Virus record (IMG/VR): IMGVR_UViG_3300020360_000085
Coordinates: 186,520 to 250,519 of that record
Direction: 5' to 3' (one strand)
Origin: a virus
Lineage: Duplodnaviria > Caudoviricetes
DNA length: 64,000 nucleotides
Shown here: positions 3,968 through 35,341 of the stretch, piece by piece
Position numbering within the stretch: position 1 is the stretch's first letter
Layout: each line of letters opens with the position of its first letter
Program-made: the position numbers and the translations under genes
The notes under the pieces: generated by a model
Database searches by the model: none
What the model was told of the DNA's origin: nothing
Seen by the model: the letters and a program-made list of their open reading frames with translations, nothing else

Positions 3968-4196
3968 GTGTTATCTCCTGTGTTCCGTAGTCCCTATCAA
4001 CGGCAACTACTGTTCCGTCTATAGAATATAATTGTTTAATAGGCTGTCCTTTTATATCTTTAAAATGTTCAGGACAGACATCTGTTCTCATCGCTCTATA
4101 AACACGATTGCCACCATCTGGACTAGTATAAATCCAAAATGGATTCGAAGGCCAATCGTCTGTTAATCTTTTAACTGCTCTATCTAACTTGTCCAT
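3960..4196 (-). CDS. Hypothetical protein
   Basis: ORF track. Confidence 0.7.
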   Translation of the reverse strand: MDKLDRAVKRLTDDWPSNPFWIYTSPDGGNRVYRAMRTDVCPEHFKDIKGQPIKQLYSIDGTVVAVDRDYGTQEITHD

Positions 4197-5172
4197 TTAA
4201 AAACTCAGCATAGGCAGTTGCGTCATCGCTCATTCTTTGTAAGTTCCATTTAGAACAGAACTTCATAAAATGTATTCCGACTTGTGTAGCAGGTTCCTTG
4301 TTTACTGCATTAGCAACTATTTGTCTTGCTTCTGCTTTTATTTCATCAGGTTGTGCTGTTAAGTCTATTAATATTTTATTTCTTTCGAAATCGTCTTTTA
4401 CTCTATGTTCAACTTCTTCATGATCTACCCATCTTTGTAACATAAAGTTATTGTAATTAAACCCGCCAGTATTTCTATCATTATATGCTTCTAGTATTCC
4501 TGTTTTGTTTTTTGTGCCTTTACTTCTTGCACCTGGATAGGCACTAAATACGTTATCTGAACTATCTCCCCTAACACATTTTTCAAATAAAACAAATTCA
4601 GGATCTATTGCTTTTTTAGGTTCATTTGTTTTTTTATCTATAACAGTCTCTCCTGTTTTAGCATTTTTAAATCCATCTAAACTAACTATTTGATCAGTAG
4701 TACCATTATATTGTATTACATTATCATCTAATAATTGATAAAAATCACTATCTGTACTTATAATTACATGTTTGTCTTCTGGGTGTTGTTGTATCCATGT
4801 AGCAATTAAGTCATCTGCTTCTGCATTAGACTGTTGTATGACACTACAATTTGTTTTAGCATTAAAAAACTGTATCATATCATCATATGCTTCAAAAAAT
4901 AGTTCATCGTCTTCCATTTGCTTGGGTGTACGTTGGTCCATTGTAACTTTTCTGTTTGCTTTATAAGGCTTGTAAAAGTCTTTTCTCCAACTTCTGCCTT
5001 CTAAACACATTACAACATGATCTCCTTCAAACTCACGCCATACTTTTTTAATACTATTAAACATAATATGCATAGCCATACCCACTCGCATATCTATATC
5101 TTTACCACCCCCAACATGTTTTGCTCTCATAAACATATTAAGGCTATCTACTAAAATATAAGTCTTACTCAT
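4180..5172 (-). CDS. rnh: T4-like RNase H / 5'-3' exonuclease (FEN family)
   Basis: ILVDS, EADDLIA, STDSDFYQL and GDSSDN acidic motifs. Confidence 0.9.
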   Translation of the reverse strand: MSKTYILVDSLNMFMRAKHVGGGKDIDMRVGMAMHIMFNSIKKVWREFEGDHVVMCLEGRSWRKDFYKPYKANRKVTMDQRTPKQMEDDELFFEAYDDMIQFFNAKTNCSVIQQSNAEADDLIATWIQQHPEDKHVIISTDSDFYQLLDDNVIQYNGTTDQIVSLDGFKNAKTGETVIDKKTNEPKKAIDPEFVLFEKCVRGDSSDNVFSAYPGARSKGTKNKTGILEAYNDRNTGGFNYNNFMLQRWVDHEEVEHRVKDDFERNKILIDLTAQPDEIKAEARQIVANAVNKEPATQVGIHFMKFCSKWNLQRMSDDATAYAEFLNGQVR

Positions 5173-6533: not shown

Positions 6534-7421
6534 TTATTTTCCGATTGCATTACCGTATATGTGTACATGTACTCTACTTGTATAGTAGTAACCACGTTTA
6601 ATGGCTTCATCGGCAATAGTGGCCTCAGTTTGTATGAGACCTTCAAATGTTCCACCTACTCCCATAATCCATACAGGAAAGTTGCAACCGGCGTCACGGA
6701 ACATTCTAGTGTTTTCTTCCACTTCCCTCCAACTTTCATCTGTGCCATTAACAACAAACTTTAGTTGACCGTGTGGACTAATTTCTGCGTATCTCCCTAT
6801 AACATCAGGCTTTATTGCTTTTTTAGATTGCTCTCCAGCAGTTGCCCATAGTTTAGGGGATAAACTCCAATACCATTCCCTAGTACCATCATATGTAAAC
6901 CATGCAATATAATCTTCTAGTTCTTGTGTAATAGGTCTAGTACCATTAGTTTCTATAGTCACATAGTTAGGCATATTTTCTCTTCTTTGGAACTCTTCTA
7001 ATACTCCAATCATTGCTGGTTGTGTATTTTTAAGCATAGGCTCTCCGCCTGTAAATACCATGTGAGTTTCTTGTCCTGTATCTGGATGTATAAATTTACC
7101 TTTAGGTAAATGAGCAGTAAGTTCATCACATGCTTCTTCTACAGTTTTATCTGTTATTAAATGGCTATATTTTTTTGCCCATGTATATGAACTATCACAG
7201 CCTTTATCAAAAACAGGTAAATCAAATACATTTGTAATATCTGTAATGTCTAGTTTTTCATAAGGTAATTCATATGTACTAGGATCTGTAGGATCTTTTT
7301 GTCCAAAACCATTACATTGTAAATTACATAGAAAAAATCTCATCCAAAGACTAGGAATACCGACATATTTGCCTTCTCCTTGTGCTGAATAAAATGTTTC
7401 GCTATATTTTACTGTTGTCAT
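6534..7421 (-). CDS. queE: 7-carboxy-7-deazaguanine synthase (radical SAM)
   Basis: SETFYSAQGEG, CNLQCNGF cluster motif, CD(S/T) motif, FTGGEP, IETNGT, HVHIYG C-terminus. Confidence 0.93.
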   Translation of the reverse strand: MTTVKYSETFYSAQGEGKYVGIPSLWMRFFLCNLQCNGFGQKDPTDPSTYELPYEKLDITDITNVFDLPVFDKGCDSSYTWAKKYSHLITDKTVEEACDELTAHLPKGKFIHPDTGQETHMVFTGGEPMLKNTQPAMIGVLEEFQRRENMPNYVTIETNGTRPITQELEDYIAWFTYDGTREWYWSLSPKLWATAGEQSKKAIKPDVIGRYAEISPHGQLKFVVNGTDESWREVEENTRMFRDAGCNFPVWIMGVGGTFEGLIQTEATIADEAIKRGYYYTSRVHVHIYGNAIGK

Positions 7422-7917
7422 CTTCTTTTAAAAATTTTAAAATAGTACCTGGTTCTATATCAGGAACCGCATTACTAATAGCACTATTTACAATACTATG
7501 TATATCACTTACTTCCTCTAAAAGGTTATCCCCATTTACTTTGTCTTCATAAGATTCAATAGCAAGTGTTCTAAAACCTATTTCATATAAATCACTTATG
7601 TCTGTAATATTTATGTTCGTATTTCTTCCCATTTGCAACACTTTTAAAAAAATTGTATCTGCAATACTAGTGGTTGCTAAAGTAATTTCTTGATTATCAA
7701 CAGACTGATTTACAACAACCAATCTATCATGTACGCCTATTGTATCATGATCTGCAACTGCATCTAAACACTCAAAAATTTCTTCAACAGAGACAGGAAA
7801 CCTTTTTTGTATTACATCTACTGGATTTCTGTCTAAAATAGAATCAGTAATATTTCTTACAGGAACCTTTAATGCTCCTATAACAAGTGTGCCATTTAGA
7901 TTACTAATATTACTCAT
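7402..7917 (-). CDS. Hypothetical protein with DUF433-like HTH N-terminus
   Basis: VIGALKVPVRNI...FPVSVEEIFECL resembles the DUF433 pattern (by eye). Confidence 0.45.
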   Translation of the reverse strand: MSNISNLNGTLVIGALKVPVRNITDSILDRNPVDVIQKRFPVSVEEIFECLDAVADHDTIGVHDRLVVVNQSVDNQEITLATTSIADTIFLKVLQMGRNTNINITDISDLYEIGFRTLAIESYEDKVNGDNLLEEVSDIHSIVNSAISNAVPDIEPGTILKFLKEDDNSKI

Positions 7918-8607
7918 TTATTTTCCACATGAGAATTCTTGTTGTAGTTTAATATTATCAAAAAATTCTTTCTTAGTTGAGGCGTCGTCCATAAATCTGC
8001 CTTCTAATACTGTAGTTTGTGTTAAACTGCTATGTGCCATAACACCTCTGTTCTCTACGCAACCATGTGTTGCTTGTACATAAACACCTACATCATTACT
8101 GCCTGTTGCTTTCATAATCTCTCTAGCAATATCAGTAGCAAGTTCTTCTTGTAAAGTACCTCTACTAGCACACCATTGTGCTATTCTAGTATATTTAGAC
8201 AAACCAATAAGTTTTGCCCCTGCAATGATGCCAATATACGCCGTTCCTTTAACTGTTTGATGATGATGCGAACACATACTAGTAAGTTCACTTCTTACTA
8301 CAAGCATACCTTTATATGCTTCTTCTGTATCATTAGGAAATGCAGTAGCCTTAGGCATTGGCTCATATCTACCAGACATAAGTTCATTGATGTACATTTT
8401 TGCAAGACGCCTTCCTGTGTCCATACTGTTAGGATCATTTTCAGTATCTATAACTAAGCCTTTAAGAACATCTTCAAATTTTACTGATAGTTCTTCAATT
8501 AGTGCTTCTTTGTCTCCAGGTTCAATAAATTCACTAATATTATCTCCTGCCCAAAACTTTGCACCTGCTTCTTGTAGTCTTGCTCTTATTTCATCACTTT
8601 TGGCCAT
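7918..8607 (-). CDS. folE: GTP cyclohydrolase I
   Basis: DTGRRLAKMY, SMCSHH, GLSKYTR, LQEEL, HGCVENRG Zn-ligand motifs. Confidence 0.95.
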   Translation of the reverse strand: MAKSDEIRARLQEAGAKFWAGDNISEFIEPGDKEALIEELSVKFEDVLKGLVIDTENDPNSMDTGRRLAKMYINELMSGRYEPMPKATAFPNDTEEAYKGMLVVRSELTSMCSHHHQTVKGTAYIGIIAGAKLIGLSKYTRIAQWCASRGTLQEELATDIAREIMKATGSNDVGVYVQATHGCVENRGVMAHSSLTQTTVLEGRFMDDASTKKEFFDNIKLQQEFSCGK

Positions 8608-8619
8608 TAAAAAGGTCTC

Positions 8620-9108
8620 CTATTTCCACCATTCTTCATATGGAAAGACTATCCATCTTTCCTGATCTGGCAAAACAACGTTTGCCGTAAATTCTACTTC
8701 ATTAAACTCACTGCTTTCTTTATCAAACAAAGTTGCAAATTTAATACCCTCATGTAAAGTAAACATATTGTTATTTTGTTTACTATCAAAATCTTTAATT
8801 ACAGACAATATACCATGTAATGTCTTACCAGAATCATTAATATCATCTACAACTAAAATGTTTTTACTAATGTATTTAGACAAAATGTGTTTAAGAGTCT
8901 CAGAATCTTCGATTTTTCCGTCTCTTGTTTGCCATCTAAATGCTTCAAAAGGCACCTCAAAGTAGTGGCTTAACATAACACCAAAAGGATATGCTCCTCT
9001 ACCAGGGCCTATAATTACATCAGGTTTATAACTTTCATGTGCCATTTCTCTAGCAATGATTCTGCAGTCAGAAACCAAGTCGTTGTATGAGTAATATAAT
9101 TTATTCAT
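8620..9108 (-). CDS. Type I purine-type phosphoribosyltransferase (Gpt/Hpt-like)
   Basis: PRPP loop VVDDINDSGKT; WIVFPYE C-terminus. Confidence 0.88.
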   Translation of the reverse strand: MNKLYYSYNDLVSDCRIIAREMAHESYKPDVIIGPGRGAYPFGVMLSHYFEVPFEAFRWQTRDGKIEDSETLKHILSKYISKNILVVDDINDSGKTLHGILSVIKDFDSKQNNNMFTLHEGIKFATLFDKESSEFNEVEFTANVVLPDQERWIVFPYEEWWK

Positions 9109-9114
9109 AATTAC

Positions 9115-9142
9115 AGTATAACATCATTTTACTTGATGTCAA
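9115..9142 (-). promoter_or_regulatory. sigma70-type promoter, 6 nt from PRTase ATG
   Basis: TTGACA-N16-TATACT with TGT extension. Confidence 0.75.
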
Positions 9143-9143
9143 T

Positions 9144-10100
9144 TTATTTCTTAGACTGATATGCAATTTCATCAGCAACAATTTCTTCTAATGTATTTTG
9201 TGGTTCCCAACCTAACATCTCAAATGCTTTTACTATATTTGCATCTGTTCTTTCAGCATCGCCATCTCTTTTAGGGCCAACTTCTACATTAATTTCTTTT
9301 TCTAATTGTTTTTCTACTTCTGCAATAACTTGCTTTATACTTGTTCCAGATCCGCCACCAATATTAAATATATTACTATTGCCACCATCCATTAAATAGT
9401 TTAAAGCAGATACATGAGCAGATGCTACATCAAAAACATGAGTGTAATCTCTAATACATGTACCATCAGGTGTTTCGTAATCGTCTCCATTTACTGTAAA
9501 AACTTCGTCATTTAAACCAGCATTTACTAGTATAGGTACTAAATGTTGTTTTGGATTAAGTGTATATCCTAATCCTTGATAACTACCTGCGGCATTAAAA
9601 TATCTTAAACTTGCAAAATTAAATTCATAAGCATCTGCATAGTCTTTTAAAACATTTTCTATAATTAACTTACTTCTACCATATGGTGTTTTAGGATTAG
9701 GAATGTCGCTTTCTGCATTTAGAATAGTTTCTGAGTCTCCGTAAACAGAACTTGAACTACTAAAAATAAAATGCTTAACTCCTGCATTTATAGAATGATT
9801 TAAAAGAGATATTGAGTTTGCCACATTATTAGCATAAGTAGAGGCAGGATCTTGTATGCTTAAAGGCACACTATGATCAGCCGCTAGATGAATAACTGCA
9901 TCTGGTTTTGTTAATTCTATTACGCCTTTTAATTGATGATTATCAATATCAAAAGGATATTGTGTGACACCTTCTTGCTGTCTTTTTACCCTGTCAATAT
10001 TAATAACATTATAGCCTGAATCAACAAGTAATTTACAGGTTACACTACCTATAAATCCACTACCACCAGTAACTAAAATAGTTTTTTCTTCATTATCCAT
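9144..10100 (-). CDS. galE: UDP-glucose 4-epimerase
   Basis: GGSGFIG, FSSSSSVYG, YGRSK, RYFNAAG, DGTCIRDY. Confidence 0.92.
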   Translation of the reverse strand: MDNEEKTILVTGGSGFIGSVTCKLLVDSGYNVINIDRVKRQQEGVTQYPFDIDNHQLKGVIELTKPDAVIHLAADHSVPLSIQDPASTYANNVANSISLLNHSINAGVKHFIFSSSSSVYGDSETILNAESDIPNPKTPYGRSKLIIENVLKDYADAYEFNFASLRYFNAAGSYQGLGYTLNPKQHLVPILVNAGLNDEVFTVNGDDYETPDGTCIRDYTHVFDVASAHVSALNYLMDGGNSNIFNIGGGSGTSIKQVIAEVEKQLEKEINVEVGPKRDGDAERTDANIVKAFEMLGWEPQNTLEEIVADEIAYQSKK

Positions 10101-11080
10101 TATTTCTCACTAAACCAGGAATCAAATACTTGTTCACTATCACAAACATTGATTCCGTTAAAATTAAAGTTAGTAATTGCATCTACAGTCATATCCACAC
10201 TTTCTTCAAATCTGTCAAACAGTTTTAAGTTTGGATACAACTCTGGATACACTAACCTATTAGGAAGTACAGGCGTACAACCTAAATACACGGCTTCAGC
10301 AACACCAAAGCCAAAGTTTTCTTGTAAAGCATAACTTACGATTGCTTTACTTTTGCCAAGTAAAGAATAGTATTCTTCCTTGGAAAGATTTTGTTCCTGT
10401 GTTTTTACAAACTGTACCGGAACATTTACCTTTTCAGATACTTGTTTTTCTAATTCATCAAACAACCAAGGTTGTTTTTCATCACAAAGTCTTCCATTAA
10501 AGATAACAATATTTTCTTTTTGTTGCCCTTTGTGTGAATCGAGCCCTGTGTAGTCTACAGGCAAACCTGTAACAACTAACTTGTCAGGGCTCACGATACG
10601 TTTTTTAATTATATCTTGTTTAATAAATTCACTTGCACAAAAAATTGTATCGCTTATATCAAATATAATATCCTCAAAATTCTTTGCCCAACGTTCCATA
10701 TCGCGAACAAAATCTGTATCTGTAAAACTTCCTGCATGAATTATACCTGTAATCTTTACATCAACTTTGTTAAAGTATTTCATATAGGCAATGTTTTCAA
10801 TACCAGGAAACCAAATGTCACTAAAGAAGAATCTGTCGCCATCTGCAATTTCTCCTCTTTCAAACATAGCAGATATTTCTGCCATTTGTAAAGATTTAAA
10901 TTTACTTGTAAAGGCGGCATTTAAAAATTGACCTTCAGGCAAAGGAGGTGTTTCATAAGTAGGCATAATTTTAACATACTCTAAATTTTTATCCTGTAGA
11001 TATTTTTCAATATCTCTGTCCATATGAACAGTATATCTACCATCAATATGTTCTAAAGGTATGTAAATTATTTTACTCAT
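10100..11080 (-). CDS. GT-B fold glycosyltransferase (GT4-like)
   Basis: FNGRLCDEKQ and QENFGFGVAEAVYLGCTPV donor-binding motif; shares a base with the galE start (ATAATG coupling). Confidence 0.82.
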   Translation of the reverse strand: MSKIIYIPLEHIDGRYTVHMDRDIEKYLQDKNLEYVKIMPTYETPPLPEGQFLNAAFTSKFKSLQMAEISAMFERGEIADGDRFFFSDIWFPGIENIAYMKYFNKVDVKITGIIHAGSFTDTDFVRDMERWAKNFEDIIFDISDTIFCASEFIKQDIIKKRIVSPDKLVVTGLPVDYTGLDSHKGQQKENIVIFNGRLCDEKQPWLFDELEKQVSEKVNVPVQFVKTQEQNLSKEEYYSLLGKSKAIVSYALQENFGFGVAEAVYLGCTPVLPNRLVYPELYPNLKLFDRFEESVDMTVDAITNFNFNGINVCDSEQVFDSWFSEK

Positions 11081-11219
11081 TTTCGTTTTCGTCTCCTAAA
11101 CCTTCTCCATAATCTACAACGTGAGTTATTTCATCGTCAAGACTTTGAGCATAATCATTATTTTTATCTGCCTCTGCTTTACTAATTTTTTTAGGCTTTT
11201 TCTTCTCTTCTTCAGTCAT
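11073..11219 (-). CDS. Small acidic hypothetical protein (48 aa)
   Basis: Manual translation MTEEEKKKPKK...VVDYGEGLGDENENE; coupled to both neighbours. Confidence 0.6.
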   Translation of the reverse strand: MTEEEKKKPKKISKAEADKNNDYAQSLDDEITHVVDYGEGLGDENENE

Positions 11220-11395
11220 TACATTGAGTTCTTTTTATCTTGGATTTCAGAACGTCTAACTTTTGTTAATTTGCTGATTTCCATTAATGCCTTTCTTGCT
11301 CTTGTGGCACTTGCTTTTACACCATTATTTTCGAACTTGTCTTGTTCCATAATGTATTCTTCCATCAGTGCTTTAAGTTTTAAATGTGTTTCCAT
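11219..11395 (-). CDS. Histone H1-like Hc1-family small protein (58 aa)
   Basis: Manual translation METHLKLKALMEEYIMEQDKFENNGVKASATRARKALMEISKLTKVRRSEIQDKKNSM; AAGGAG RBS; missed by ORF track. Confidence 0.7.
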   Translation of the reverse strand: METHLKLKALMEEYIMEQDKFENNGVKASATRARKALMEISKLTKVRRSEIQDKKNSM

Positions 11396-11406
11396 ATCTT
11401 TCTCCT

Positions 11407-11787
11407 TTATGGTACTTTTATGTATTCCATTTCACAGCCATTTTCATTATCCTCGGCTACTGAAATCTTTACCCAACGACCAGGATACCTATCTTGTATC
11501 TGTGTCGCTAAATCATCTGCGATCATTTCGCATGACTTGTTATTAAGTTGTATAACATCTTCATTATACAAACTTTCAAGCCATCTTTTAAATTGTATAA
11601 ACTCGATATCTCTGTCATCATGAAACACTTCTATCCACACTTTAAAGTGAAATATGTGTCTGTGTTTATACCCCAAAAAACTTACGTCATACTCGTCTCC
11701 TGTAGCAGTAGCAGGATTTGTATCTGCTCCAGGATAAAAGTGTATTCCCTCTTTACTGAATGTTACCCAAATACTTCTCACGACCAA
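11407..11787 (-). CDS. QueD-like T-fold protein with LxxxHRHxF signature (DpdL-like or QueD substitute)
   Basis: LGYKHRHIFHFKV, DRDIEF, SCEMIA and VAEDNENG motifs; located in deazaguanine cluster. Confidence 0.75.
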   Translation of the reverse strand: MVVRSIWVTFSKEGIHFYPGADTNPATATGDEYDVSFLGYKHRHIFHFKVWIEVFHDDRDIEFIQFKRWLESLYNEDVIQLNNKSCEMIADDLATQIQDRYPGRWVKISVAEDNENGCEMEYIKVP

Positions 11788-11925
11788 CCTCCATCAATTG
11801 TTTCCATTACTATAACTCCTTATTCTCTTGTTTGTCATTATTATAACCGCCAACTAAAAATATTGTTGCAAAGGCAACACTGAAGCACACTAAACTAACA
11901 AAAAATACTAATTGTGTTAATTCCA

Positions 11926-12333
11926 TTATGCCTCCTTATTTGGGTTCCAAATAGTTAGATTTTTAGTTTTAAGTCTATTAGCAACAATTTTGTATCTGGA
12001 CTGCTCTTCCTTCCATTCCTTTAACCATTTATGGCCATCTCTTTCTGCATCTACAAAAATAGCATTTGTAAAGGCCAAAGGAATTAAAATTGCACAATGT
12101 ATTATAATACTTGCTACTGTATTATAACCAAACCATCCGAGATAGTGTGCCGCAATAAATCCAAAAAATACACTCCACATAACAAACAGCACTAACATAA
12201 AGTATGTTTGTAAACTTGGATCTGGTATATACTTTAATGGATTATATCTAACGTCCATTACTCTTCTCCAGCCATTTACAAGACCTAATATTGCCCTTCT
12301 AAATAGGCTTGGCTTCTTCATTAAAGGTTCCAT
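11926..12333 (-). CDS. Membrane protein
   Basis: Two hydrophobic helices; GGAG RBS. Confidence 0.7.
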   Translation of the reverse strand: MEPLMKKPSLFRRAILGLVNGWRRVMDVRYNPLKYIPDPSLQTYFMLVLFVMWSVFFGFIAAHYLGWFGYNTVASIIIHCAILIPLAFTNAIFVDAERDGHKWLKEWKEEQSRYKIVANRLKTKNLTIWNPNKEA

Positions 12334-12438
12334 ATTTTCTCCTATTCAATATGATTTCTTATATATTCTTTTAATACATGCATACCATATGATATCCAAG
12401 TAATAAAAAAAAGACTCCATAAAACTAATTGAAGAATT

Positions 12439-12630
12439 TCAATCATTAACTGAATCCGCTTCAGTTAATCTGTCTAACTCCTCAATATCATGTTCACCAA
12501 TAATTTCAACATCAAAGTTTCCATCTGGTGTTCTATCAACAGTAAATGACATATCATATCCTTTACTTTCTAAAGTATCTACTTTAGCACAAAATTCATT
12601 AAATTCGCTAGTGGTTAATGTTGCTTTCAT
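12439..12630 (-). CDS. Hypothetical protein
   Basis: ORF track, RBS. Confidence 0.65.
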   Translation of the reverse strand: MKATLTTSEFNEFCAKVDTLESKGYDMSFTVDRTPDGNFDVEIIGEHDIEELDRLTEADSVND

Positions 12631-12751
12631 TCTGACTCCTTGTCATTATTTTCTGCTTCTTCATTTGCAGTTTCATTATTTTGCTTCTGCTTTTTTAGTA
12701 TTTCAGCAATAGCACTTTCGTAACTTAATGGTTGTTCTTTTTTATCTTCTG

Positions 12752-12913
12752 TCATTTTTCTGGGTCTTCTAAAATATCTTGTTTCTCTTCTATTACCTTT
12801 CTCATAACGTCATGCTCTGTAGTATCACACCAATTGCAAGGCTGTCCATATGGTATTTGTGTTTCTCCAACATCTTTACAAACATGTGTCCACCATTTAC
12901 CATTCTGCTTCAT
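12752..12913 (-). CDS. Small Cys/His protein (WWTHVC...PCNWC)
   Basis: Manual translation, 53 aa; not in ORF track. Confidence 0.55.
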   Translation of the reverse strand: MKQNGKWWTHVCKDVGETQIPYGQPCNWCDTTEHDVMRKVIEEKQDILEDPEK

Positions 12914-13085
12914 CTATAAGTTCCTGTATCTCATCAGGTATTTCTACACCTGTTCTTTTAAGAAACACAAATAACTTAACAAAAAATCCTTCCCAATCTT
13001 CTATTTCAGTAAAGTCTCCATCAAACTCAACACTTGATATTATATTATGTTCGTCCGTTCCTGTCAACTTATATTTTACAGCCAT
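12897..13085 (-). CDS. Hypothetical protein
   Basis: ORF track. Confidence 0.65.
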   Translation of the reverse strand: MAVKYKLTGTDEHNIISSVEFDGDFTEIEDWEGFFVKLFVFLKRTGVEIPDEIQELIDEAEW

Positions 13086-13561
13086 TATATAATCTCCGCC
13101 CTATTAGTATATTTTATATAAGGCTCAAAATAACTTTTTCTAGTCATTTTTTCTATAGACTCTGAAAATATTCCATCATTAGAATATGTTAAATACTTGT
13201 CATTTATTTTATAACAAGTATTTTCGTTGTATTCTGCTAAATCTGGAATAATAAAATTTAAAATTGGAATAAAGTTATTACTGTTATTGCATTCCATGTT
13301 TATTATATCTGGGCAATAATTAGGAGTAAATTCTAAAGATATATATAAATCTTTTACTGCTAATAACTCTTTTAAAAGGTCTGCCCATAAATTAAATTGA
13401 TTTCTGTTACCTGGATTAAAATTAGTAAAATGGATATGATGTACTTTATTGTTTAATGCTCGTGCTAATATTTCTTCTTTATGTTGCCAGCCATGTACAA
13501 ACAAAGTTTCCTCACCTTTCATAATTGTGTTATCAACTTCGCTACCTAAACTATAAATCAT
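13085..13561 (-). CDS. Hypothetical protein coupled to dpdA
   Basis: ATGA overlap with dpdA stop; GSEVD...TLFVHG...HHIHF motif. Confidence 0.75.
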   Translation of the reverse strand: MIYSLGSEVDNTIMKGEETLFVHGWQHKEEILARALNNKVHHIHFTNFNPGNRNQFNLWADLLKELLAVKDLYISLEFTPNYCPDIINMECNNSNNFIPILNFIIPDLAEYNENTCYKINDKYLTYSNDGIFSESIEKMTRKSYFEPYIKYTNRAEII

Positions 13562-15090
13562 GCCTCAAAATCTCCTGACATAATTTCATGTGTCATTGCA
13601 TTTACATCATCGTCCTGATCAAATTCTTCTTCCTCAAAAAATGCACCAAATCCTGCATTTGTTTTAGCACCAAAACTCATCTCATCTAGTAATTTAACAT
13701 TTTCTTCTATTAGTTCATATGGATTAGGACAAGCAGGATCTAATACTTCCTGGCAAAAACTATCAAAGTATAATGCATTTGCAGGAACATAAGGACTAAA
13801 TTCGTTACTCTTGCCTGATTTTTTATCATTAATATAATCAGTATAATGTACATTAGTTCTATATTTTTCTACATCAGCAAGTCTGTTTGCTTCTTGTACC
13901 GCAGTAATATGATTGTACACACTATGAGCCATATAATATAGATATGTTTGTGTGTCCCAACTTGTAGATGTTGCACTCTTGGCCTTTCCGTTTTTATCTA
14001 GATCGCCTTCTGACATGGCACATATATCTCCTACAGTAAGTCTTTCCATTATAGGAGAATGTGCAAATGGCATAGGCAACTTGGAGCCTTTTAATTGTTG
14101 ATTGTCTATCGCTCTATCCATTAAGTAACTAAACTTTTTAGGATGGAAACTGTTATGTGTATATGTGCTACCATATGCACTATTAACAAACGGACTGGCG
14201 GCATCCATGCTCAAACATATATCTGGACTGTCATGTTTCCTTAACATTCTTTGTATGCTAGTTAAGTAACAGGCCCAATTAAGTTTACCTGTACCCAAGA
14301 AATGTATCCAGCCTTTGCCTTCCAACAATCCATCTTCCCTGAGTTTAAGTATCCTTCTTAGGGCCATTCTCATATTACGTTTTTGTAAATCAGCAAATGC
14401 GTATCCTTCTAATGCAAGTTCGCTATTGCCATATGCTTCTTTACAAAATTTAGGGTCACTAAAATGTTTAACTTTTTCATACCACTCATCACAAGTAGGC
14501 TCATCAACTCCACTCATTACATTTAAGAACTTACACTTACCTGGTGTTCTGTTCTTCATATAGTAGTCCAAGTTGTACAAACTAATTTGCATAGTTTGTT
14601 CAAAAGTTTCTAATCCTGTTTTTTTATTGAAAGGAGGGAAGGCCGCAAAAGGAGGAACATCTAATGTCATTGCCCAATCGCATTGTTCCTCTTCCCATTT
14701 AAGAATTTTATTTACAAGTTTTTCCCTTTCAGGATCATCTGGATTTATAGCATTTGCCCAATCCATTTTAATAACACCAGTTGCAATCTGGAAACCGCCT
14801 GAGTCTCCAAGTATTAGTGTTTTACTTCTATCTCTATCAGTAATCATAGGCTCGCCATCAAGTTTATCTAAATCTAACTGAGCATGACCGGCAGAGTATA
14901 ATCCCCAAGGATAGTAATAGTAAGTGTCTATATCTTTTAGGAAATCCATGCCCTCATGACCTAATTCAAGTCCTTCAGGTACTCTAGGTGCTCCTTCTTT
15001 TTGTAATTTTTCTAACTGCTTTACATAAAAACTACTAATAGCAGGTAAAAATATTGCATAGTCTCTTTGTGTTTTTCCTAAATTTTTCAT
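13558..15090 (-). CDS. dpdA: DNA 7-deazaguanine transglycosylase (TGT-like)
   Basis: TGT motifs LGDSGGFQ, AMTLDVP, HFLGTG and SMDAAS; neighbours queE and folE. Confidence 0.85.
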   Translation of the reverse strand: MKNLGKTQRDYAIFLPAISSFYVKQLEKLQKEGAPRVPEGLELGHEGMDFLKDIDTYYYYPWGLYSAGHAQLDLDKLDGEPMITDRDRSKTLILGDSGGFQIATGVIKMDWANAINPDDPEREKLVNKILKWEEEQCDWAMTLDVPPFAAFPPFNKKTGLETFEQTMQISLYNLDYYMKNRTPGKCKFLNVMSGVDEPTCDEWYEKVKHFSDPKFCKEAYGNSELALEGYAFADLQKRNMRMALRRILKLREDGLLEGKGWIHFLGTGKLNWACYLTSIQRMLRKHDSPDICLSMDAASPFVNSAYGSTYTHNSFHPKKFSYLMDRAIDNQQLKGSKLPMPFAHSPIMERLTVGDICAMSEGDLDKNGKAKSATSTSWDTQTYLYYMAHSVYNHITAVQEANRLADVEKYRTNVHYTDYINDKKSGKSNEFSPYVPANALYFDSFCQEVLDPACPNPYELIEENVKLLDEMSFGAKTNAGFGAFFEEEEFDQDDDVNAMTHEIMSGDFEA

Positions 15091-15398
15091 GTTCCAAATC
15101 CTAATTGACCGTTTACATAGTCATTAACGTTTTTATTTTCTTTTTCTTTTGTATCAAAAACTTTTTCCTCATGTTTAAGTTGAGCCCAATTTTTTTCTCT
15201 ACGTTCCTCGTCTGCCCAGCCACTTTCTATATGTAGTCCTGCAGGTAATGACATATTTTTCTTTTCAGTTTTACTTTCCATTTCACTATTTTTTAATAGT
15301 TCTTCTTCAGAAATACAACCACACATTTTACCACTTAACTCCAACATTAAAACTAAACACATTAGTATCAATAGGATCTTCTGTGTAAGTGTTTGCAA
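15087..15398 (-). CDS. Hypothetical protein (true start likely internal)
   Basis: ORF track; overlaps upstream gene by about 70 nt. Confidence 0.5.
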   Translation of the reverse strand: MQTLTQKILLILMCLVLMLELSGKMCGCISEEELLKNSEMESKTEKKNMSLPAGLHIESGWADEERREKNWAQLKHEEKVFDTKEKENKNVNDYVNGQLGFGT

Positions 15399-16011
15399 TA
15401 CTTAATACTAAGCCACTATCTAAATTATAATTTAAAGCAGTTTCATTTCTTATATAAACATCACTATCACTACCTTCTTCATAAAGAAACTTATTTGTAA
15501 AAGTAATTTTTTCAGCAACTTTGTAAAAAAACCATAAACTGTTTCTAATAATTGCTTCATTTATAGAGTCTGTTTGTAAAGTTGCAATAGAAAATTCGTT
15601 ACTTGCTTTCATTCTGTCTGTTCTTAAAAGTTTGTATCCATATCCAACACCTAGTACTTTCCTATCTCCGTCTGCTCTAAATTTATCATTATCATAACCT
15701 AGCACACCAAATACATATTGCTTTGGAGAAAATGTATAATTAGTTTTTGTATTAAACACAAACTCATTTAAAATTTCTTCGCTATCCTCTTTTTTGTAAA
15801 CATAGTCTGTTTCCAATGTTTGTTGCCACTTATTCTGTTCCCACTGATAGTCAAAACTACCATTAACAGTTACAGAATGGCTATTGATTAAAGTACCACC
15901 AAGTTTTGCACTTCCAGATGCATTTAATGGATTAGACAATATCATAAAAAATAAGAATAGCAGACTACATACTGCTATCTTATAATATTTTTCTACCTTT
16001 TCGTCAGACAT
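15328..16011 (-). CDS. DUF481/YdiY-like outer-membrane beta-barrel
   Basis: Signal peptide, alternating beta-strand pattern, YDNDKF and GVGYGY motifs, C-terminal Trp beta-signal. Confidence 0.75.
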   Translation of the reverse strand: MSDEKVEKYYKIAVCSLLFLFFMILSNPLNASGSAKLGGTLINSHSVTVNGSFDYQWEQNKWQQTLETDYVYKKEDSEEILNEFVFNTKTNYTFSPKQYVFGVLGYDNDKFRADGDRKVLGVGYGYKLLRTDRMKASNEFSIATLQTDSINEAIIRNSLWFFYKVAEKITFTNKFLYEEGSDSDVYIRNETALNYNLDSGLVLSIANTYTEDPIDTNVFSFNVGVKW

Positions 16012-16758
16012 TTAACTCCTTGCTGGAAGTAGATAAGTATATTTTCCTATACCACTGTCTACAATAATTTGCAATAAACCTTGATCATTAATACTCATTA
16101 CACAATTACCAGACTCACTTAATCTTAAAATTTTAAGAACTATGTCTAAAGGCCATCTCCAATCTTTAGTAATACTGCCTTCTATATCATTACTAATTAA
16201 AATTTTTGTTCTATCACTTACACCATCACCAATATGGAAAAATAGTTGTGTACCATCAGTTTTAGGACTAAAGTTTGCCTCAAATCCGCCTAGCACACTA
16301 TTAAAGTAACCTAAATCTTTTAAGTTCTTTTGTGTAGGCACAATGTTTACATCAAACTCTGCACCTTTAAATTTAATTGCTTTTAACTGCTGATTAATTA
16401 CATCTGCCAACATAAATCTGTAATGTGCATCATTACCATCTTGTGCAGTAAATTTAATTTCTACAGGAACATTATCTCCATTCCTTTCTTGCATCACAAC
16501 TTCTTGTTTTGCATTTTCATCATCAAAGCCAGGATATTGCAAGTACCCTTGTAGTACTCCCATTCTGCTTAAACCAATTGTTGAGTCCACAAAGTCAGCA
16601 ACTGCATTATGTGTCTCTCCTTTAAAAATTACAGTCTTGTCTGCATCAACAGTTTCTACTTCTGTTTTGTCCAATGTGCCTGTAATTTTAACCATTTCAA
16701 AAATGCCTAAACTATGTGTGTGTTTTAGAACATCTTTAAATACATCTTTAATAGCCAT
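16012..16758 (-). CDS. Putative DNA sliding clamp (gp45-like)
   Basis: Size, two-domain beta-rich pattern, directly after the polymerase; clamp loader elsewhere in window. Confidence 0.6.
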   Translation of the reverse strand: MAIKDVFKDVLKHTHSLGIFEMVKITGTLDKTEVETVDADKTVIFKGETHNAVADFVDSTIGLSRMGVLQGYLQYPGFDDENAKQEVVMQERNGDNVPVEIKFTAQDGNDAHYRFMLADVINQQLKAIKFKGAEFDVNIVPTQKNLKDLGYFNSVLGGFEANFSPKTDGTQLFFHIGDGVSDRTKILISNDIEGSITKDWRWPLDIVLKILRLSESGNCVMSINDQGLLQIIVDSGIGKYTYLLPARS

Positions 16759-16835: not shown

Positions 16836-19517
16836 TCATAATTCGAAAAATTTTTGTAATGTTTCACTCTCCGTTGTTTTACTTAATTCAAATCCTAAAG
16901 GACCTAAAACGTTTTCTACTTTTTTGTCCACAACACTTTCTTCCATTGCTTCTTCATCAAAGGGCAACTCCTTAAACCATTGTGGCAAATTTAATTCATC
17001 TGTAGGGTATGCAACACTAGTATAACCCATAGGATTATTTTTAAGTTTACAAACAACTACCTTCATACCATCAGTTATAGGCAGACTGTAGTTATCACTG
17101 TTTGCTTGTCTTAAATTATTCCAATTTATACTTGCCCTGACATGCCCAGGAATCATGTTACTTTGTCCTTCATTTTTTACAGCATCTAACTTATGCAATC
17201 TGTAATTTTCAGGCACTTTAGCCTTAGCCATTAGTTTTGCGGTGTACATTGTAACATTATTAGCACGTTTAGGCATACCTTTTTTCCAAGGATCTAAACT
17301 TTTAAAGTAATCTTTAAAGTCTCTAATTTTTTGTATTGCATGTTCTTCTCCCATACCTTTTAAGGAGTCAATTAATACTTCCTCTAAAAAGTCTTGAATA
17401 AATTCAGGAGTATCAGAACGTTTTATTTCTAATCCCATTGCCTTAAGTTTGCCACCCTCAGGCTGATATCCTTCTATATCTAAACACAGTATTGCGTACC
17501 TTTTCTTTGTTAAAAATAGTCCTGATCTGCCTACTACTTCTCTTCCTGCTTTCATTACTTGTCCAGTGTCTAAAGGAACATTAAAAGTATCTTTTAGATA
17601 TTGCGGAAAAGTTTCACTTACATTTTCAGATATATGATCATACAATTTTATTGCACTATCCATTTCCAGTTTTTCACCTTCAGGTAAGGCCGGAGTAGCA
17701 GTAAAGTAAACAGAATCTGTGTCTCCATATATAATACAATCTCCTTCATGATCATATTCTCCAGTCAACATAAGATTAGTTTGAGCCCCCATATGCCTAG
17801 TAATGCTCCTGCCAGTTAGTGTAGTACTTTGTCCTATACGTTTGTCATAAAATCTACAACCAGGATTTAGTATTGCACCATATAAACTATTAAGTTGAAT
17901 CTTTTTAACTAACTGCCTTTTATCCCAAAAAGCAATCTCTTCAGACGTTGTTGCTTCTTTTTTCTTCTTTTGCATTTGTTGTCTTTCTGCATACCAACGT
18001 TCTAATAAGCCAGGCACAATGCCTTGGAAGTCTGTTTTAAATATTGTGCCATTTGCACTTATATTCCAAGGTTGCCCACTATTAAAAACTAAATTGTAAA
18101 CATCAGCACCTGTAACTTTATGTGTAGATCCATCTTCCATATCCAAATCCATCATATGATCTACATCTTTATTTTTAACAAACTCATATTCATCTGTTCC
18201 AAACTTGCCATGCCAAGCATCACTAAATGTTTTTTTCTCTAACTTCATTGCATTAGTAATTGTTTCTTCTGTATAATCCAAACGTAACTGCCCAACAATA
18301 GTTTCAGGCGCCATATTTAAGGCCCTAAATACACTAGGATACAGACTGTTTAAGTCCATACTGCCTACCCATTCATGAAAACCTTTTTTAGGAGTTGCCA
18401 CAAAGGCACCAGCCGCCTGATCTCTTTCTGATGCTTTAGGTCTGTCAGGAACTACAAACTCCCTCCTGTGTGCTTCATTAATAATTGCTTGTTCTGTTGT
18501 TGCTACCGCCCCCATTGTTGCCGGCAATAGTATTGTATTTTCATGTGCAATAATATTTGCAAGATCGATAAACATTAATTTTTTATCCATTTTTGCAAGT
18601 AGCATAACGTCTTGTATGTTGTATTCTAAAAATTTTACAAAGTCATAATTGTAAAGTCTATCTAGACTACCTTCATAAGGGACTTTTTTCTCCCCTATTT
18701 CCATTTCCCCTATATAGTCTAGCCTATAACTATGTCGTTCCTCATAATTGTATTTCCTATATAAGTTCAGGTAGTCTAGATGAACTCGACCTACTAGGTC
18801 ATAACTGACAACTTCTTTGCCATATTGCTCAAACTTCCTTTCTTTAGGAAGTTTTTTCATAAGGCACAGTCGCCTAGTTTCTGCTTTACCCATTACTCTG
18901 GTAATTCTGTTTACTATGTAAGGTATATCATAACCTTCACTGTTCCAACCACTTATAATATCTGCGTCATCTATAAGTGTAAGAAAAGCATCTAGCATTT
19001 CTTTTTCTGTTTTATATAAAATAACTTCAGGCATATCCTTTGTCATTTCATTTGCTTGTTCAAAAGATATCCTTTTAGGAGGAACAGCAAGACATATCAT
19101 TGTCTCCATCCAATCTAAATATATTCCTATTGCAGTAATAATAGAATAGGGATCTTGAGGACTACTATATCCTCTGCTAGGATCAAAGTCTGATTCTATA
19201 TCTATAAATGCTGTTTGTAATTTAGGAGCAGGAGAATTAGTATAATTATCTGCAAGTGTTTTGTTAAGAGGCCTTATATCACTTTCATAAAGACCGTTGT
19301 GTTTGTTTATGCCTACATTCTTTTTAAAATCTTTTATGTTTGTGCAACGAACTTCTGTTACAGGATCACCATATATACTTTTAGTTTTGCCATTAGGATC
19401 TTTATAATAAAAATTGTGTACAGGTTTAAGTTCTTTTACAACTCTTTCTCCATCCACACGTTCTACGACTGTTACAACGTCTTTCGATTGTTCGTAAAAT
19501 GCGTCTACATAACTCAT
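16836..19517 (-). CDS. Family B DNA polymerase (gp43-like)
   Basis: Exo motifs FIDIE, WNSEGYD, YNIQD; polymerase motifs DLNSLYPS, KIQLNSLYG, YGDTDS. Confidence 0.97.
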   Translation of the reverse strand: MSYVDAFYEQSKDVVTVVERVDGERVVKELKPVHNFYYKDPNGKTKSIYGDPVTEVRCTNIKDFKKNVGINKHNGLYESDIRPLNKTLADNYTNSPAPKLQTAFIDIESDFDPSRGYSSPQDPYSIITAIGIYLDWMETMICLAVPPKRISFEQANEMTKDMPEVILYKTEKEMLDAFLTLIDDADIISGWNSEGYDIPYIVNRITRVMGKAETRRLCLMKKLPKERKFEQYGKEVVSYDLVGRVHLDYLNLYRKYNYEERHSYRLDYIGEMEIGEKKVPYEGSLDRLYNYDFVKFLEYNIQDVMLLAKMDKKLMFIDLANIIAHENTILLPATMGAVATTEQAIINEAHRREFVVPDRPKASERDQAAGAFVATPKKGFHEWVGSMDLNSLYPSVFRALNMAPETIVGQLRLDYTEETITNAMKLEKKTFSDAWHGKFGTDEYEFVKNKDVDHMMDLDMEDGSTHKVTGADVYNLVFNSGQPWNISANGTIFKTDFQGIVPGLLERWYAERQQMQKKKKEATTSEEIAFWDKRQLVKKIQLNSLYGAILNPGCRFYDKRIGQSTTLTGRSITRHMGAQTNLMLTGEYDHEGDCIIYGDTDSVYFTATPALPEGEKLEMDSAIKLYDHISENVSETFPQYLKDTFNVPLDTGQVMKAGREVVGRSGLFLTKKRYAILCLDIEGYQPEGGKLKAMGLEIKRSDTPEFIQDFLEEVLIDSLKGMGEEHAIQKIRDFKDYFKSLDPWKKGMPKRANNVTMYTAKLMAKAKVPENYRLHKLDAVKNEGQSNMIPGHVRASINWNNLRQANSDNYSLPITDGMKVVVCKLKNNPMGYTSVAYPTDELNLPQWFKELPFDEEAMEESVVDKKVENVLGPLGFELSKTTESETLQKFFEL

Positions 19518-25191: not shown

Positions 25192-25819
25192 ACAATCCCT
25201 CAGGTGGATAAGAAATATAATATATTTCTCTTTCTTCTTTTATTATGCCATATAACCAACTTTTGTCTTTAGTTACCTCTGTTATAAGTGTAGCAATATA
25301 TCTAGGCCAGCCTACCACATCTTTAATATGTGCTGGACAAATACCATATGAATCGATACCATTTGCTCTTTGATTTTGTATAATTTGGTAATCTACTGCT
25401 CGTTGCATTTTATATGTTAGTAAATTTTTAAATTCAGGATTTGTGTCTTTTGCAATTTGGCTAGTGATATGTGCTATTTCTCCTTTAAAATTATTTTCTA
25501 TAAGCCAATCAAACACAAATACTTTAAAAAAATTAGTGTCTAAATTGTTTTGATACCATTCATTAAAAATTATTTTTTGCGTATCAACATTTTGATTATG
25601 TATAGGATGATTTAATTCGAAAGGTACACCAACATTAATATTAAACACAACATAGTCAGGAAAAGGTAAATTTTCTTTTGCTTGTTCTATAAATTCGGCA
25701 GGGTTTGTATAATTTACATTTTCCCTGCCTAATTGTGTTACTTTATGACCGTCCTCATGCCATTGGTCTACCATATGCTGACTAAAGTCTGAACTTTTGC
25801 CAAATAACCAAATGTTCAT
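25166..25819 (-). CDS. Short-chain dehydrogenase-like Rossmann protein
   Basis: IWLFGKSSDFS nucleotide loop, VVFNIN, YKMQR (YxxxK-like), YGICPAH. Confidence 0.5.
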   Translation of the reverse strand: MNIWLFGKSSDFSQHMVDQWHEDGHKVTQLGRENVNYTNPAEFIEQAKENLPFPDYVVFNINVGVPFELNHPIHNQNVDTQKIIFNEWYQNNLDTNFFKVFVFDWLIENNFKGEIAHITSQIAKDTNPEFKNLLTYKMQRAVDYQIIQNQRANGIDSYGICPAHIKDVVGWPRYIATLITEVTKDKSWLYGIIKEEREIYYISYPPEGLYDTSNDLP

Positions 25820-27156
25820 TCTTCGTCTTTTCTAGTATAAGGAATAGTTATTCCAAATGGTGCTTCAGGACTTCTGTCTCCATAACCACCATGCACAATA
25901 AACAATGTATCACAGTAATGCTCATCTCCCCAACTTCCATAAGGATAGCCGTCAGTAAACATTACATGCTTCTTAGGAGTAATACCGTTTTCTTTCATGT
26001 AATCAAATACACAATCAAAATCAGTACCGCCACCACCATGCAGTTCGTATTCCATAAACTCGCCCATGTTACCCTGATCAAATACTTGAGGGTTGTAAAC
26101 ATCTGTATCAAAACAAACTAAATGTATTTTAAAGTCTGTGTATTGGTCCATAACACCTTTAACTTCTCCTAAAAAGTCTCTAGCCATATCGTCAAATATA
26201 GAACCTGACATATCCATGGATACAAAAATATCTATTGTTGTTTCCCTATCTAATCCAGGAAAGTAGTAACCTTCTTCTCTACCTTTTCTGCTAGGAGTTT
26301 GCATAGTGTAATCACTTCTCATAACACTTTGTATTTGCATAGCAAGTAATTGTCTCCAATCAAGTTGTGGATTCAAAAACTTATCTAGCAATCTTTTTAC
26401 TCCGCCTGGCAAGTTACCAGCACCTGCCGCCTTGGCGGCCTGCATAGTAGCATTCTGGAACTCTTGTTTTATTTGTTCTTTTTCTTCAGCAGTATATTGT
26501 GCAGGACCGTCTTTGCCTTCCTCGTCTCCATCTGAATTGCCTTTGTTTACAGAGTCAGGACTTGCATCGTCACCTTCCTCTCTATCTAAATGCACATCAA
26601 AAGTATCTTGATTTACTTCAATAATTTGTCCATTTTCCTGCATTTCGTCAAAAAGTTCATCGTAAATTTCTTCAGATATTTTACCTCTGTATTTCCAATC
26701 ATGACATATTTGCACAATTTTTATTTCTTCGCCTACTCTAGCATCAATAAGATCAGCATTAATAACATAATCGTTTGCTATGTTCCATAATACAGGATGT
26801 CTGTCTCCTCTCCTAGTAACATCCATATGATCATATACACAATGTAAAACTTCGTGACCCATAAGGAATACAGTTTCTTCATCGCTTAAAGCACCTACAA
26901 AATGCTTGTTGTAATAAAAATATTTGCCGTCAGTTGCGGCTGTAGGACACCATTCTGTAGCATCTTTAAGGATTAGTCTAGTTGCTAAGTTGCCAAAGAA
27001 AGGTGCTGACATCAGCATTTCTATTCTGGCTTTAATAAGTTTATCTAGTATTTCCTCATCAGAAAGACTAGTTTCTGGTATATCTACTAATGTTTTACTA
27101 GATCTATCAGAAGCATTACCTTTTGCTTTTGGTGTTTTATCTAAAATATCTGTCAT
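25816..27156 (-). CDS. DUF2201-like metallopeptidase + VWA domain protein
   Basis: HEVLH zincin motif, TAATDG, MIDAS DMSGS, GGGGTDF, MFTDG. Confidence 0.88.
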   Translation of the reverse strand: MTDILDKTPKAKGNASDRSSKTLVDIPETSLSDEEILDKLIKARIEMLMSAPFFGNLATRLILKDATEWCPTAATDGKYFYYNKHFVGALSDEETVFLMGHEVLHCVYDHMDVTRRGDRHPVLWNIANDYVINADLIDARVGEEIKIVQICHDWKYRGKISEEIYDELFDEMQENGQIIEVNQDTFDVHLDREEGDDASPDSVNKGNSDGDEEGKDGPAQYTAEEKEQIKQEFQNATMQAAKAAGAGNLPGGVKRLLDKFLNPQLDWRQLLAMQIQSVMRSDYTMQTPSRKGREEGYYFPGLDRETTIDIFVSMDMSGSIFDDMARDFLGEVKGVMDQYTDFKIHLVCFDTDVYNPQVFDQGNMGEFMEYELHGGGGTDFDCVFDYMKENGITPKKHVMFTDGYPYGSWGDEHYCDTLFIVHGGYGDRSPEAPFGITIPYTRKDEE

Positions 27157-33220: not shown

Positions 33221-33313
33221 TATGTTCTCCTAATACTAGTATTTGTTCTAATTCGAATTAAACGGTTTTTTGCTGAACCGTTACAAGTATTTATCTTAAA
33301 TTAAGGAATTTGT

Positions 33314-35329: not shown

Positions 35330-35341
35330 TAACTATACTCC

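Follow-up and report, generated by a model that had tools for sequence, protein, structure and literature searches.

We analysed a 64,000-nucleotide stretch of viral DNA (hereafter the window), corresponding to bases 186520–250519 of the 250.5-kb IMG/VR viral contig IMGVR_UViG_3300020360_000085, whose completeness was estimated by CheckV at 66%. The GC content of the window is ~32%, and its source is an uncultured marine jumbo phage, with the PA5oct-type Pseudomonas jumbo phages (Wroclawvirus) as nearest cultured relatives. The subject here is a cluster of ten genes on the minus strand at 6534–15090, which the original prediction had described as a 7-deazaguanine DNA-modification cluster interleaved with galE and a glycosyltransferase (GT) gene, the GT possibly adding a sugar to the inserted base. 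All ten genes were found in the order and at the places given. The cluster is embedded in a replication module, with a polymerase and a clamp on one side and an RNase H/exonuclease on the other. Judged from its genes, the system is best read as a QueC-less, DpdL-type 7-deazaguanine DNA modification, situated in the replication module of a PA5oct-related marine jumbo phage.

The gene at 11407–11787 had been called QueD/DpdL-like. The DpdL half of that label stands and the QueD half does not: the encoded 126-aa T-fold protein carries LGYKHRHIF, which conforms to the LxxxHRHxF signature that replaces the QueD motif CxxxHGH in DpdL (Cui, Hutinet et al., NAR 2023, PMC10516641). Residues L38, H42, R43, H44 and F46 of this signature are invariant among 25 homologues, as are D58-R59, S85-C-E87 and E112-D113. 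By tblastn, the protein matched gp125 of phage ACP17 (49% identity, E 8e-34) and CGPG_00067 of the Cellulophaga phage phiST (33%, E 2e-6), and a hidden Markov model (HMM) of the family matched phiST DpdL at E 1.3e-30. The surroundings are also those of DpdL: FolE, QueE and a DpdA candidate are present and QueC is absent. Neither queC nor queF lies in the window, as had been stated, and a search of the remaining contig extended this to all 250 kb. For DpdL, decarboxylation of 7-carboxy-7-deazaguanine (CDG) has been proposed as the activity and never demonstrated (PMC10516641).

Two precursor genes accompany dpdL. FolE (GTP cyclohydrolase I, 7918–8607) was identified by PF01227 (E 1.5e-37) and phrog_2197 (E 2.8e-43). 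The gene at 6534–7421 encodes a QueE-like radical S-adenosylmethionine protein, a candidate CDG synthase that matched phrog_2076 over its full length (E 7.4e-51), with all NCBIfam QueE models far below their cut-offs and the Pfam Radical_SAM model below its own. Its cysteines are unusually spaced, C32-x3-C36 being followed after ~38 residues by C75 in GCDSSYTW. The protein may belong to a separate subtype of phage QueE whose cluster-binding loop contains an insertion.

The 510-aa product of the gene at 13558–15090 had no match in Pfam, PHROG, NCBIfam or PDB sequences. Its AlphaFold2 (AF2) model, built on 54 homologues, reached a pLDDT of 91.6, and Foldseek ranks 1–48 in the PDB were all tRNA-guanine transglycosylases (TGT, ArcTGT or QTRT1; E 1e-5 to 4e-4), with TM scores by target of up to 0.54. 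The residues D96-S97-G98-G99-x-Q101 and D296 are fully or almost fully conserved among the 54 homologues (26–69% identity), and a profile match lined up the DSGG loop with DSGGYQ of the Z. mobilis TGT. At the sequence level, the family profile matched PDB TGT sequences at only E ~1.3, the Pfam TGT model PF01702 had no match in the candidate or across the whole 250-kb contig, and, with regard to the zinc-binding Cys/His cluster of TGT, none of the cysteines was invariant among the 54 homologues; the short phage DpdA3 proteins are likewise too small to hold the zinc subdomain. The profile did align with ACP17 gp123, the DpdA used by Cui et al. (PMC10516641), at an hhalign probability of 96% (E 3.6e-9), and an HMM built from the loci matched phiST DpdA3 at E 9e-5. 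The dpdA call was thus borne out, though for a divergent protein unseen by sequence libraries. Fold and family relationship together identify it as a candidate long DpdA-type DNA guanine transglycosylase with putative base-exchange activity.

The start of the following gene (13085–13561) overlaps the dpdA stop as ATGA, indicating translational coupling. Its 158-aa product could be assigned to no family by Atlas, by a Pfam scan of 18 members or by a PDB profile search. An HMM detected this partner in 74 loci, in ACP17 (gp122) and in locus L131, always accompanied by a long DpdA.

Sequence libraries recognized the GT (10100–11080) poorly. The Pfam Glyco_transf_4 and Glycos_transf_1 models scored 17 and 16 bits against gathering cut-offs of 28.5 and 26.4 (Glyco_transf_4 E 0.006), and phrog_4356, annotated as glycosyltransferase, matched at E 2.6e-6. 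Its AF2 model (pLDDT 82.9, residues 1–326 covered) shows a complete GT-B fold of two Rossmann domains, and a VIA comparison gave Z 22.4 to BshA (3mbo_B; 292 residues aligned, root mean square deviation 3.3), with more than 700 chains at Z of at least 8. MshA, GlgM, PglA and pterin glucosyltransferases were among the further structural matches. The EX7E motif (E254-x7-E262) and the donor-diphosphate residues R197...E201-K202 are invariant in 19 homologues, down to 30% identity. Modelled in this way, the protein looks like a catalytically competent retaining GT4 enzyme. A structure search of BFVD with the GT retrieved only the ACP17 GT and generic viral GTs.

The galE gene (9144–10100) starts within the GT stop, the two overlapping as TAATG, which agrees with the coupling originally noted. 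Its product is GalE (UDP-glucose 4-epimerase) at the equivalog level, as had been called, scoring 301.3 bits with TIGR01179 against a cut-off of 262.3 and matching PDB GalE entries down to E 4e-63. The residue aligned to Y299 of the E. coli enzyme and C307 of the human enzyme is threonine. We take this position to bear on the use of N-acetylated UDP-sugars, and the threonine keeps these in play. Because GalE is coupled to the GT, the arrangement suggests UDP-Gal/Glc or UDP-GalNAc/GlcNAc as the GT donor.

We then asked whether the GT and the deazaguanine genes travel together, as the original prediction had proposed to check; GT homologues without a link to dpdA had been named there as a refutation. 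An IMG/VR scan yielded at least 576 GT relatives, and the best 80 GT-centred loci (31–91% identity) were inspected; counts of gene content given below out of 110 refer to 110 loci. In 77 of the 80 loci, no more than 3 kb separated DpdL from the GT, and in the remaining three the GT was at a contig end. At least 12 distinct gene orders occurred, so the linkage is not one inherited synteny block. A megablast of the cluster against cultured phages gave zero matches; tblastn, at identities of at least ~25%, found the GT in PA5oct-like phages, Phosso, ACP17, the Xanthomonas phages BUDD/X1, Burkholderia phage BCSR5 and Synechococcus phage BUCT-ZZ01. In every one of these the GT adjoins DpdL or lies within 3 kb of it, usually adjoining a long DpdA; in ACP17 the order is gp122 (the 158-aa partner), gp123 (DpdA), gp124 (GT), gp125 (DpdL) and gp126 (QueE). 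Among genome bins, five of the six loci with GT relatives carry DpdL and/or long DpdA, and in the sixth a DpdL match lies beside a GT match that is no more than partial. The co-occurrence therefore held in metagenomic loci, six cultured lineages and genome bins alike, and because of this linkage the GT is very probably an integral part of the deazaguanine system and no passenger.

The same data bear on the possibility that the GT and GalE are auxiliary and unrelated to DNA, glycosylating virion proteins or remodelling the host surface. GT4 genes serving these functions are frequent in phages, GalE is itself a common auxiliary gene, and the Pfam support for the GT is weak. Set against this, the linkage to DpdL persists through all the gene orders and cultured lineages just described, and the GT partitions perfectly with the type of DpdA (see below). 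Moreover, the 250-kb contig has no other Glycos_transf_1-like (GT1/GT4-like) gene than that of the GT, a finding that speaks against its participation in a polysaccharide pathway, and the ten cluster proteins included no match to a flippase or polymerase family. We regard an auxiliary role as very improbable.

In cultured phages, the presence of the GT matches the long DpdA type in 11 of 11 lineages. All six GT-bearing lineages have a long DpdA (420–540 aa). The five DpdL lineages lacking a GT (phiST, RHph_I1_18, Ahp1, D479 and Bakedbeans) all have a short phiST-type DpdA3 (~260–290 aa) and no 158-aa partner. DpdL itself does not partition in this way, the window DpdL being 52% identical to that of RHph and 49% to that of ACP17; for this reason DpdL, as far as sequence similarity can tell, probably has the same job in both system types, and it is the GT and the DpdA type that change together. 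Such a joint change is expected if the transglycosylase handles a different, sugar-related substrate. As separate observations on RHph_I1_18 (L112, 7414–8238), the gene directly after DpdL is annotated as Appr-1-p processing (macro domain), and the short DpdA3 is annotated as DUF3310.

FolE, QueD and QueE are established, as families, as the enzymes that make CDG, and TGT-fold enzymes as those that exchange guanine for 7-deazaguanines. In the window phage, FolE and QueE, together with a QueD encoded elsewhere or supplied by the host, would produce CDG, which DpdL would turn into the base that is used, in the published proposal by decarboxylation to 7-deazaguanine. To judge by fold and family, the long DpdA and its 158-aa partner would then swap this base for guanine in phage DNA, and the phosphoribosyltransferase (PRTase) of the cluster could recycle the released guanine through GMP to GTP for FolE. 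Finally, the GT4 enzyme, drawing on the UDP-hexose 4-epimer supplied by the coupled GalE, would attach a hexose or N-acetylhexosamine to the deazaguanine, which at that stage could still be the free base or could already have been inserted into DNA. Virion DNA would thereby contain a glycosyl-7-deazaguanine in place of G.

Experimental work on two GT-bearing phages counts for the sugar reading. PA5oct DNA resists cleavage at restriction sites that contain G, and it is a target of END nucleases, one of them specific for modified G; that study deduced the presence of a modified G without identifying the base (PMC12191111). In E. coli, ACP17 dpdL and dpdA expressed without the GT gave no deoxy-7-deazaguanosine (dDG), and the authors suggested that further enzymes were needed (PMC10516641). 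We put the proposal that the sugar stays on the 7-deazaguanine base in DNA at close to an even chance. The broader proposal, that a sugar-bearing 7-deazaguanine, diversified among lineages under host defence, replaces G in this abundant marine clade and in PA5oct, ACP17, BUCT-ZZ01, BUDD, BCSR5 and Phosso, is tentative and falls slightly short of even.

The clusters of relatives carry further genes that relate to sugars. Of 110 loci, 57 encode GalE alongside the GT, its gene taking one of two positions. In locus L023 (5478–7255), a GFO/IDH/MocA oxidoreductase and an MDR alcohol dehydrogenase are inserted beside dpdA, and BUCT-ZZ01 (L125, 6010–7353) has a second GT beside DpdA. A PP-loop protein of the PAPS-reductase type adjoins the GT in BUDD (L123, 7365–8938; 49 bits), and in BCSR5 (L124, 6245–8993) the GT adjoins a weak PP-loop match, an AAA_28 protein also being present. 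BCSR5 additionally has a PIG-L-like deacetylase match below the Pfam cut-off and without NCBIfam or PDB support, which we treat as a lead only; a pairing of GT with deacetylase would recall BshA/BshB and MshA/MshB. An epimerase encoded by the phage, together with sugar tailoring that differs between lineages, is compatible with stoichiometric use of a sugar under diversifying selection, as in the glycosylation of hydroxymethylcytosine (hmC) in T-even phages. In locus L027 (13078–14883), a 373-aa protein of no assigned family and a Bax inhibitor-1 family membrane protein (PF01027, E 4.5e-55) are inserted into the cluster, the latter with open reading frames (ORFs) of similar sequence in L016 (12220–12888) and L023. 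In the PA5oct-like phage PAC2 (L001, 10809–11321), the epimerase gene encodes ~171 aa, roughly half of GalE, and may be a remnant or a split gene.

These sugar-related genes also help to judge whether the only acceptor of the GT is a small-molecule intermediate. In such a scheme, CDG or a pterin precursor could, for instance, be converted transiently to a glycosyl ester or carrier form, to be processed by DpdL or DpdA, and the base finally present in DNA would be plain dDG or deoxy-CDG without a sugar. Such an activity would agree with the closest GT structures, those of BshA, MshA and tetrahydrobiopterin glucosyltransferase, with the GT being tied to DpdL rather than to DpdA, and with the failure of ACP17 dpdL and dpdA to yield dDG when the GT was left out. 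However, phiST makes dDG without a GT and with an equally similar DpdL, so DpdL needs no GT; GalE, the second GT and the sugar-modifying dehydrogenases suggest stoichiometric and diversifying sugar use, not a catalytic carrier; and the DpdA type shifts with the presence of the GT. Restriction of the GT to a small molecule is accordingly judged unlikely. We also computed isoelectric points and net charges for the GT and DpdA families. The cluster proteins were all acidic, the presumed DNA-binding DpdA included, and charge was for that reason rejected as a discriminator between DNA-acting and small-molecule GTs.

The PRTase gene (8620–9108) encodes a type I purine (6-oxopurine-like) enzyme (PF00156, E 5.7e-17), whose best PDB match is the purine PRTase 1vdm (E 3e-9), with hypoxanthine-guanine PRTases next. 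In tubercidin and toyocamycin biosynthesis, TubE and ToyH couple the base to phosphoribosyl pyrophosphate (PRPP). By a comparable route, the window PRTase could couple deazaguanine to PRPP, and the nucleotide would be reduced, phosphorylated and incorporated by the polymerase, leaving the GT and the TGT-like protein other nucleotide roles. Of 110 loci, 83 have a purine-type PRTase, as do PA5oct-like phages and BUCT-ZZ01; the cluster adjoins a DNA polymerase gene, and no successful reconstitution of DpdA3-type activity has been reported (PMC10516641). Yet no PRTase was seen in the stretches fetched around the clusters of ACP17, BUDD, BCSR5 and several metagenomic architectures, all of which keep the GT, DpdL and DpdA. 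The TGT-fold protein also retains both catalytic-type aspartates, and salvage of guanine accounts for the PRTase equally well. We therefore consider the nucleotide route improbable.

A glycosylated pterin, like the biopterin glucoside of cyanobacteria, could also be made by FolE, the T-fold protein and the GT without any role in deazapurine chemistry. Tetrahydrobiopterin glucosyltransferases are among the structural matches of the GT (5ze7, E 8.5e-8; 9v0l, Z 18.9), and FolE with a T-fold protein resembling 6-pyruvoyltetrahydropterin synthase (PTPS) would represent the first two steps of pterin synthesis. Generic GT4 enzymes, however, match the GT at least as well, and DpdL is without the catalytic Cys of the PTPS/QueD motif. 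QueE and the TGT-fold enzyme are constant members of the cluster, and the cluster genes that were examined did not include a sepiapterin reductase. A pterin product is, in our estimate, extremely improbable.

Returning to a sugar on the deazaguanine of phage DNA, several points weigh against this proposal. The weakest is the acceptor atom. The original prediction had offered the CDG carboxyl as an example, which found no support, since DpdL, as the proposed CDG decarboxylase, would remove that carboxyl; plain 7-deazaguanine, if this is the DpdL product, offers the GT no obvious hydroxyl. The nearest solved GT4 enzymes (BshA, MshA and pterin glucosyltransferase) act on small molecules and not on nucleic acid, and the T4 DNA glucosyltransferases are not among the top structural matches of the GT. 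In phiST and Vibrio phage VP1, G is fully replaced by plain dDG, so a sugar is dispensable for the pathway. Synteny inside the window's own clade is inherited and hence provides no independent evidence. In addition, of the FolE/QueD/QueE set invoked for CDG synthesis, only FolE and the QueE-like protein were recovered, and no canonical QueD was found anywhere in the 66%-complete 250-kb contig. Complete relatives (a PA5oct-like phage, ACP17 and the contig G001, which spans 328 kb and has terminal repeats) encode QueD far from the cluster, and QueD is for this reason probably located in the missing third of the genome or supplied by the host. QueC was not found in these complete relatives; an apparent QueC match in G001 was rejected as an NAD synthase (NadE).

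The reference for the pathway is phiST, whose dDG system comprises FolE, QueD, QueE, DpdL and DpdA3 and in which plain dDG with full replacement of G was measured; ACP17 DNA was not analysed in that study (PMC10516641). The window shares with phiST the absence of QueC, the DpdL signature, and FolE, QueE and a divergent TGT-fold DpdA beside replication genes. Whereas phiST has a short DpdA3 (259 aa) and no GT, 158-aa partner, GalE or PRTase, the window encodes a 510-aa DpdA, a GT4 enzyme, GalE and a PRTase. Relative to the phiST dDG pathway, three co-inherited components are thus added, namely the GT4 enzyme, the long DpdA and the 158-aa partner, and this clade also has GalE and the PRTase. The closest cultured relative is PA5oct, with identities of 47.5% for DpdA, 32.7% for the GT and 59% for DpdL, and with the same module of polymerase, clamp, DpdA, GT, DpdL, epimerase fragment, PRTase and QueE. 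It differs in its epimerase of ~171 aa, in having FolE and QueD elsewhere in the genome, and in host and habitat. Its modified G rests on experiment (PMC12191111).

Three groups of glycosyltransferases invite comparison. Like the T4 alpha- and beta-glucosyltransferases, the window GT is a phage GT-B enzyme that would, as proposed here, use a UDP-sugar to decorate a non-canonical base as a counter-defence. The T4 enzymes, in contrast, are not GT4 proteins, their acceptor is the hydroxymethyl group on a pyrimidine (5-hydroxymethylcytosine), and the window GT has no sequence or top-ranking structural similarity to them. The eukaryotic enzymes QTMAN (GTDC1) and QTGAL (B3GNTL1) add mannose and galactose to queuosine in tRNA (PMC11755703) and so exemplify glycosyl transfer to a 7-deazaguanine derivative in nucleic acid. 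This parallel is one of logic and not of family: they act on tRNA, their acceptor is the cyclopentenediol of queuosine, which the window pathway cannot make, and GTDC1 was absent from the top 30 Swiss-Prot structural matches of the GT. The enzymes of bacillithiol and mycothiol synthesis, BshA and MshA, are the best structural matches (Z 20.7–22.4 over the whole protein) and share the EX7E motif, but identity to them is 12–15%, their acceptors are malate or inositol phosphate, and their genomic context is unrelated.

The remaining genes in the cluster are more peripheral. A 171-aa acidic protein (7402–7917) is encoded by a gene that overlaps the queE start by 20 nt and is kept upstream of queE in the clade. 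It had been labelled DUF433-like; the gene is there, the label is unconfirmed, the protein having no match in Pfam, PHROG or NCBIfam and a weak Atlas lead (score 0.82) as its possible link to DUF433. Between DpdL and the GT lies a gene for a small basic protein of 58 aa, Hc1-like and thus of the histone H1-like DNA-binding type (11219–11395; PF07432, E 9.4e-12, above cut-off), which is kept in 30 loci of the clade. A predicted 135-aa membrane protein (11926–12333), without a family match in Pfam, PHROG or NCBIfam, occurs in only five of 110 loci; it is poorly conserved and lies outside the pathway core. As for possible promoters, a perfect 12/12 sigma-70 consensus (TTGACA-17-TATAAT) follows closely on the 158-aa gene at 13039–13067 (minus strand), and a second site, which matches at 11/12 positions and has an extended TG, lies between galE and the PRTase gene at 9115–9142 (minus strand); the total of promoter-like sites is not above that of shuffled sequence.

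The flanking genes, also on the minus strand, define the replication module. Upstream lie a family B DNA polymerase gene (16836–19517; phrog_262, E 5e-195) and a sliding clamp homologue (16012–16758), whose match in the PA5oct-like phage PAC2 is annotated as PCNA. Downstream, the RNase H/5′-3′ exonuclease gene (4180–5172; phrog_107, E 1.7e-39) matches an RNase H annotated in a PA5oct-like phage. A DUF481 gene of a predicted outer-membrane family (15328–16011, minus strand; PF04338, E 3e-22) sits between the clamp and DpdA. It looks auxiliary and in relatives is absent or relocated, for example to a position after the 158-aa gene in loci L006 and L007. Elsewhere in the window, GC content rises to 0.39–0.41 at 30000–38000, compared with ~0.32 outside, in a region with very large ORFs of 1103, 671 and 1091 aa; a weak tail-fibre match was obtained for one of these three. 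We also noted a 729-aa homologue of Lon-like ATP-dependent proteases (40255–42444, minus strand; phrog_4871, E 6e-240) and a 446-aa HNH endonuclease family protein (25816–27156, minus strand; phrog_1314).

To our knowledge, the 7-deazaguanine derivatives known from phage DNA number eight, none of them bearing a sugar, and in the literature we found no description of a glycosylated deazaguanine or of the GT in these clusters. A sugar-bearing deazaguanine, if confirmed, would add a base formed by a GT4 enzyme to those that occur naturally in DNA; as a glycosylated purine, it would constitute a new class of natural DNA bases and the purine counterpart of glucosyl-hmC. The metagenomic family concerned is large, comprising more than 4,600 DpdA clusters at 90% identity. 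The finding, if true, would bear on the modified G of the therapeutic phage PA5oct and on the failed reconstitution of DpdL and DpdA in E. coli, and on how modification-sensing defences such as END nucleases, Dag glycosylases and type IV enzymes recognize their targets.

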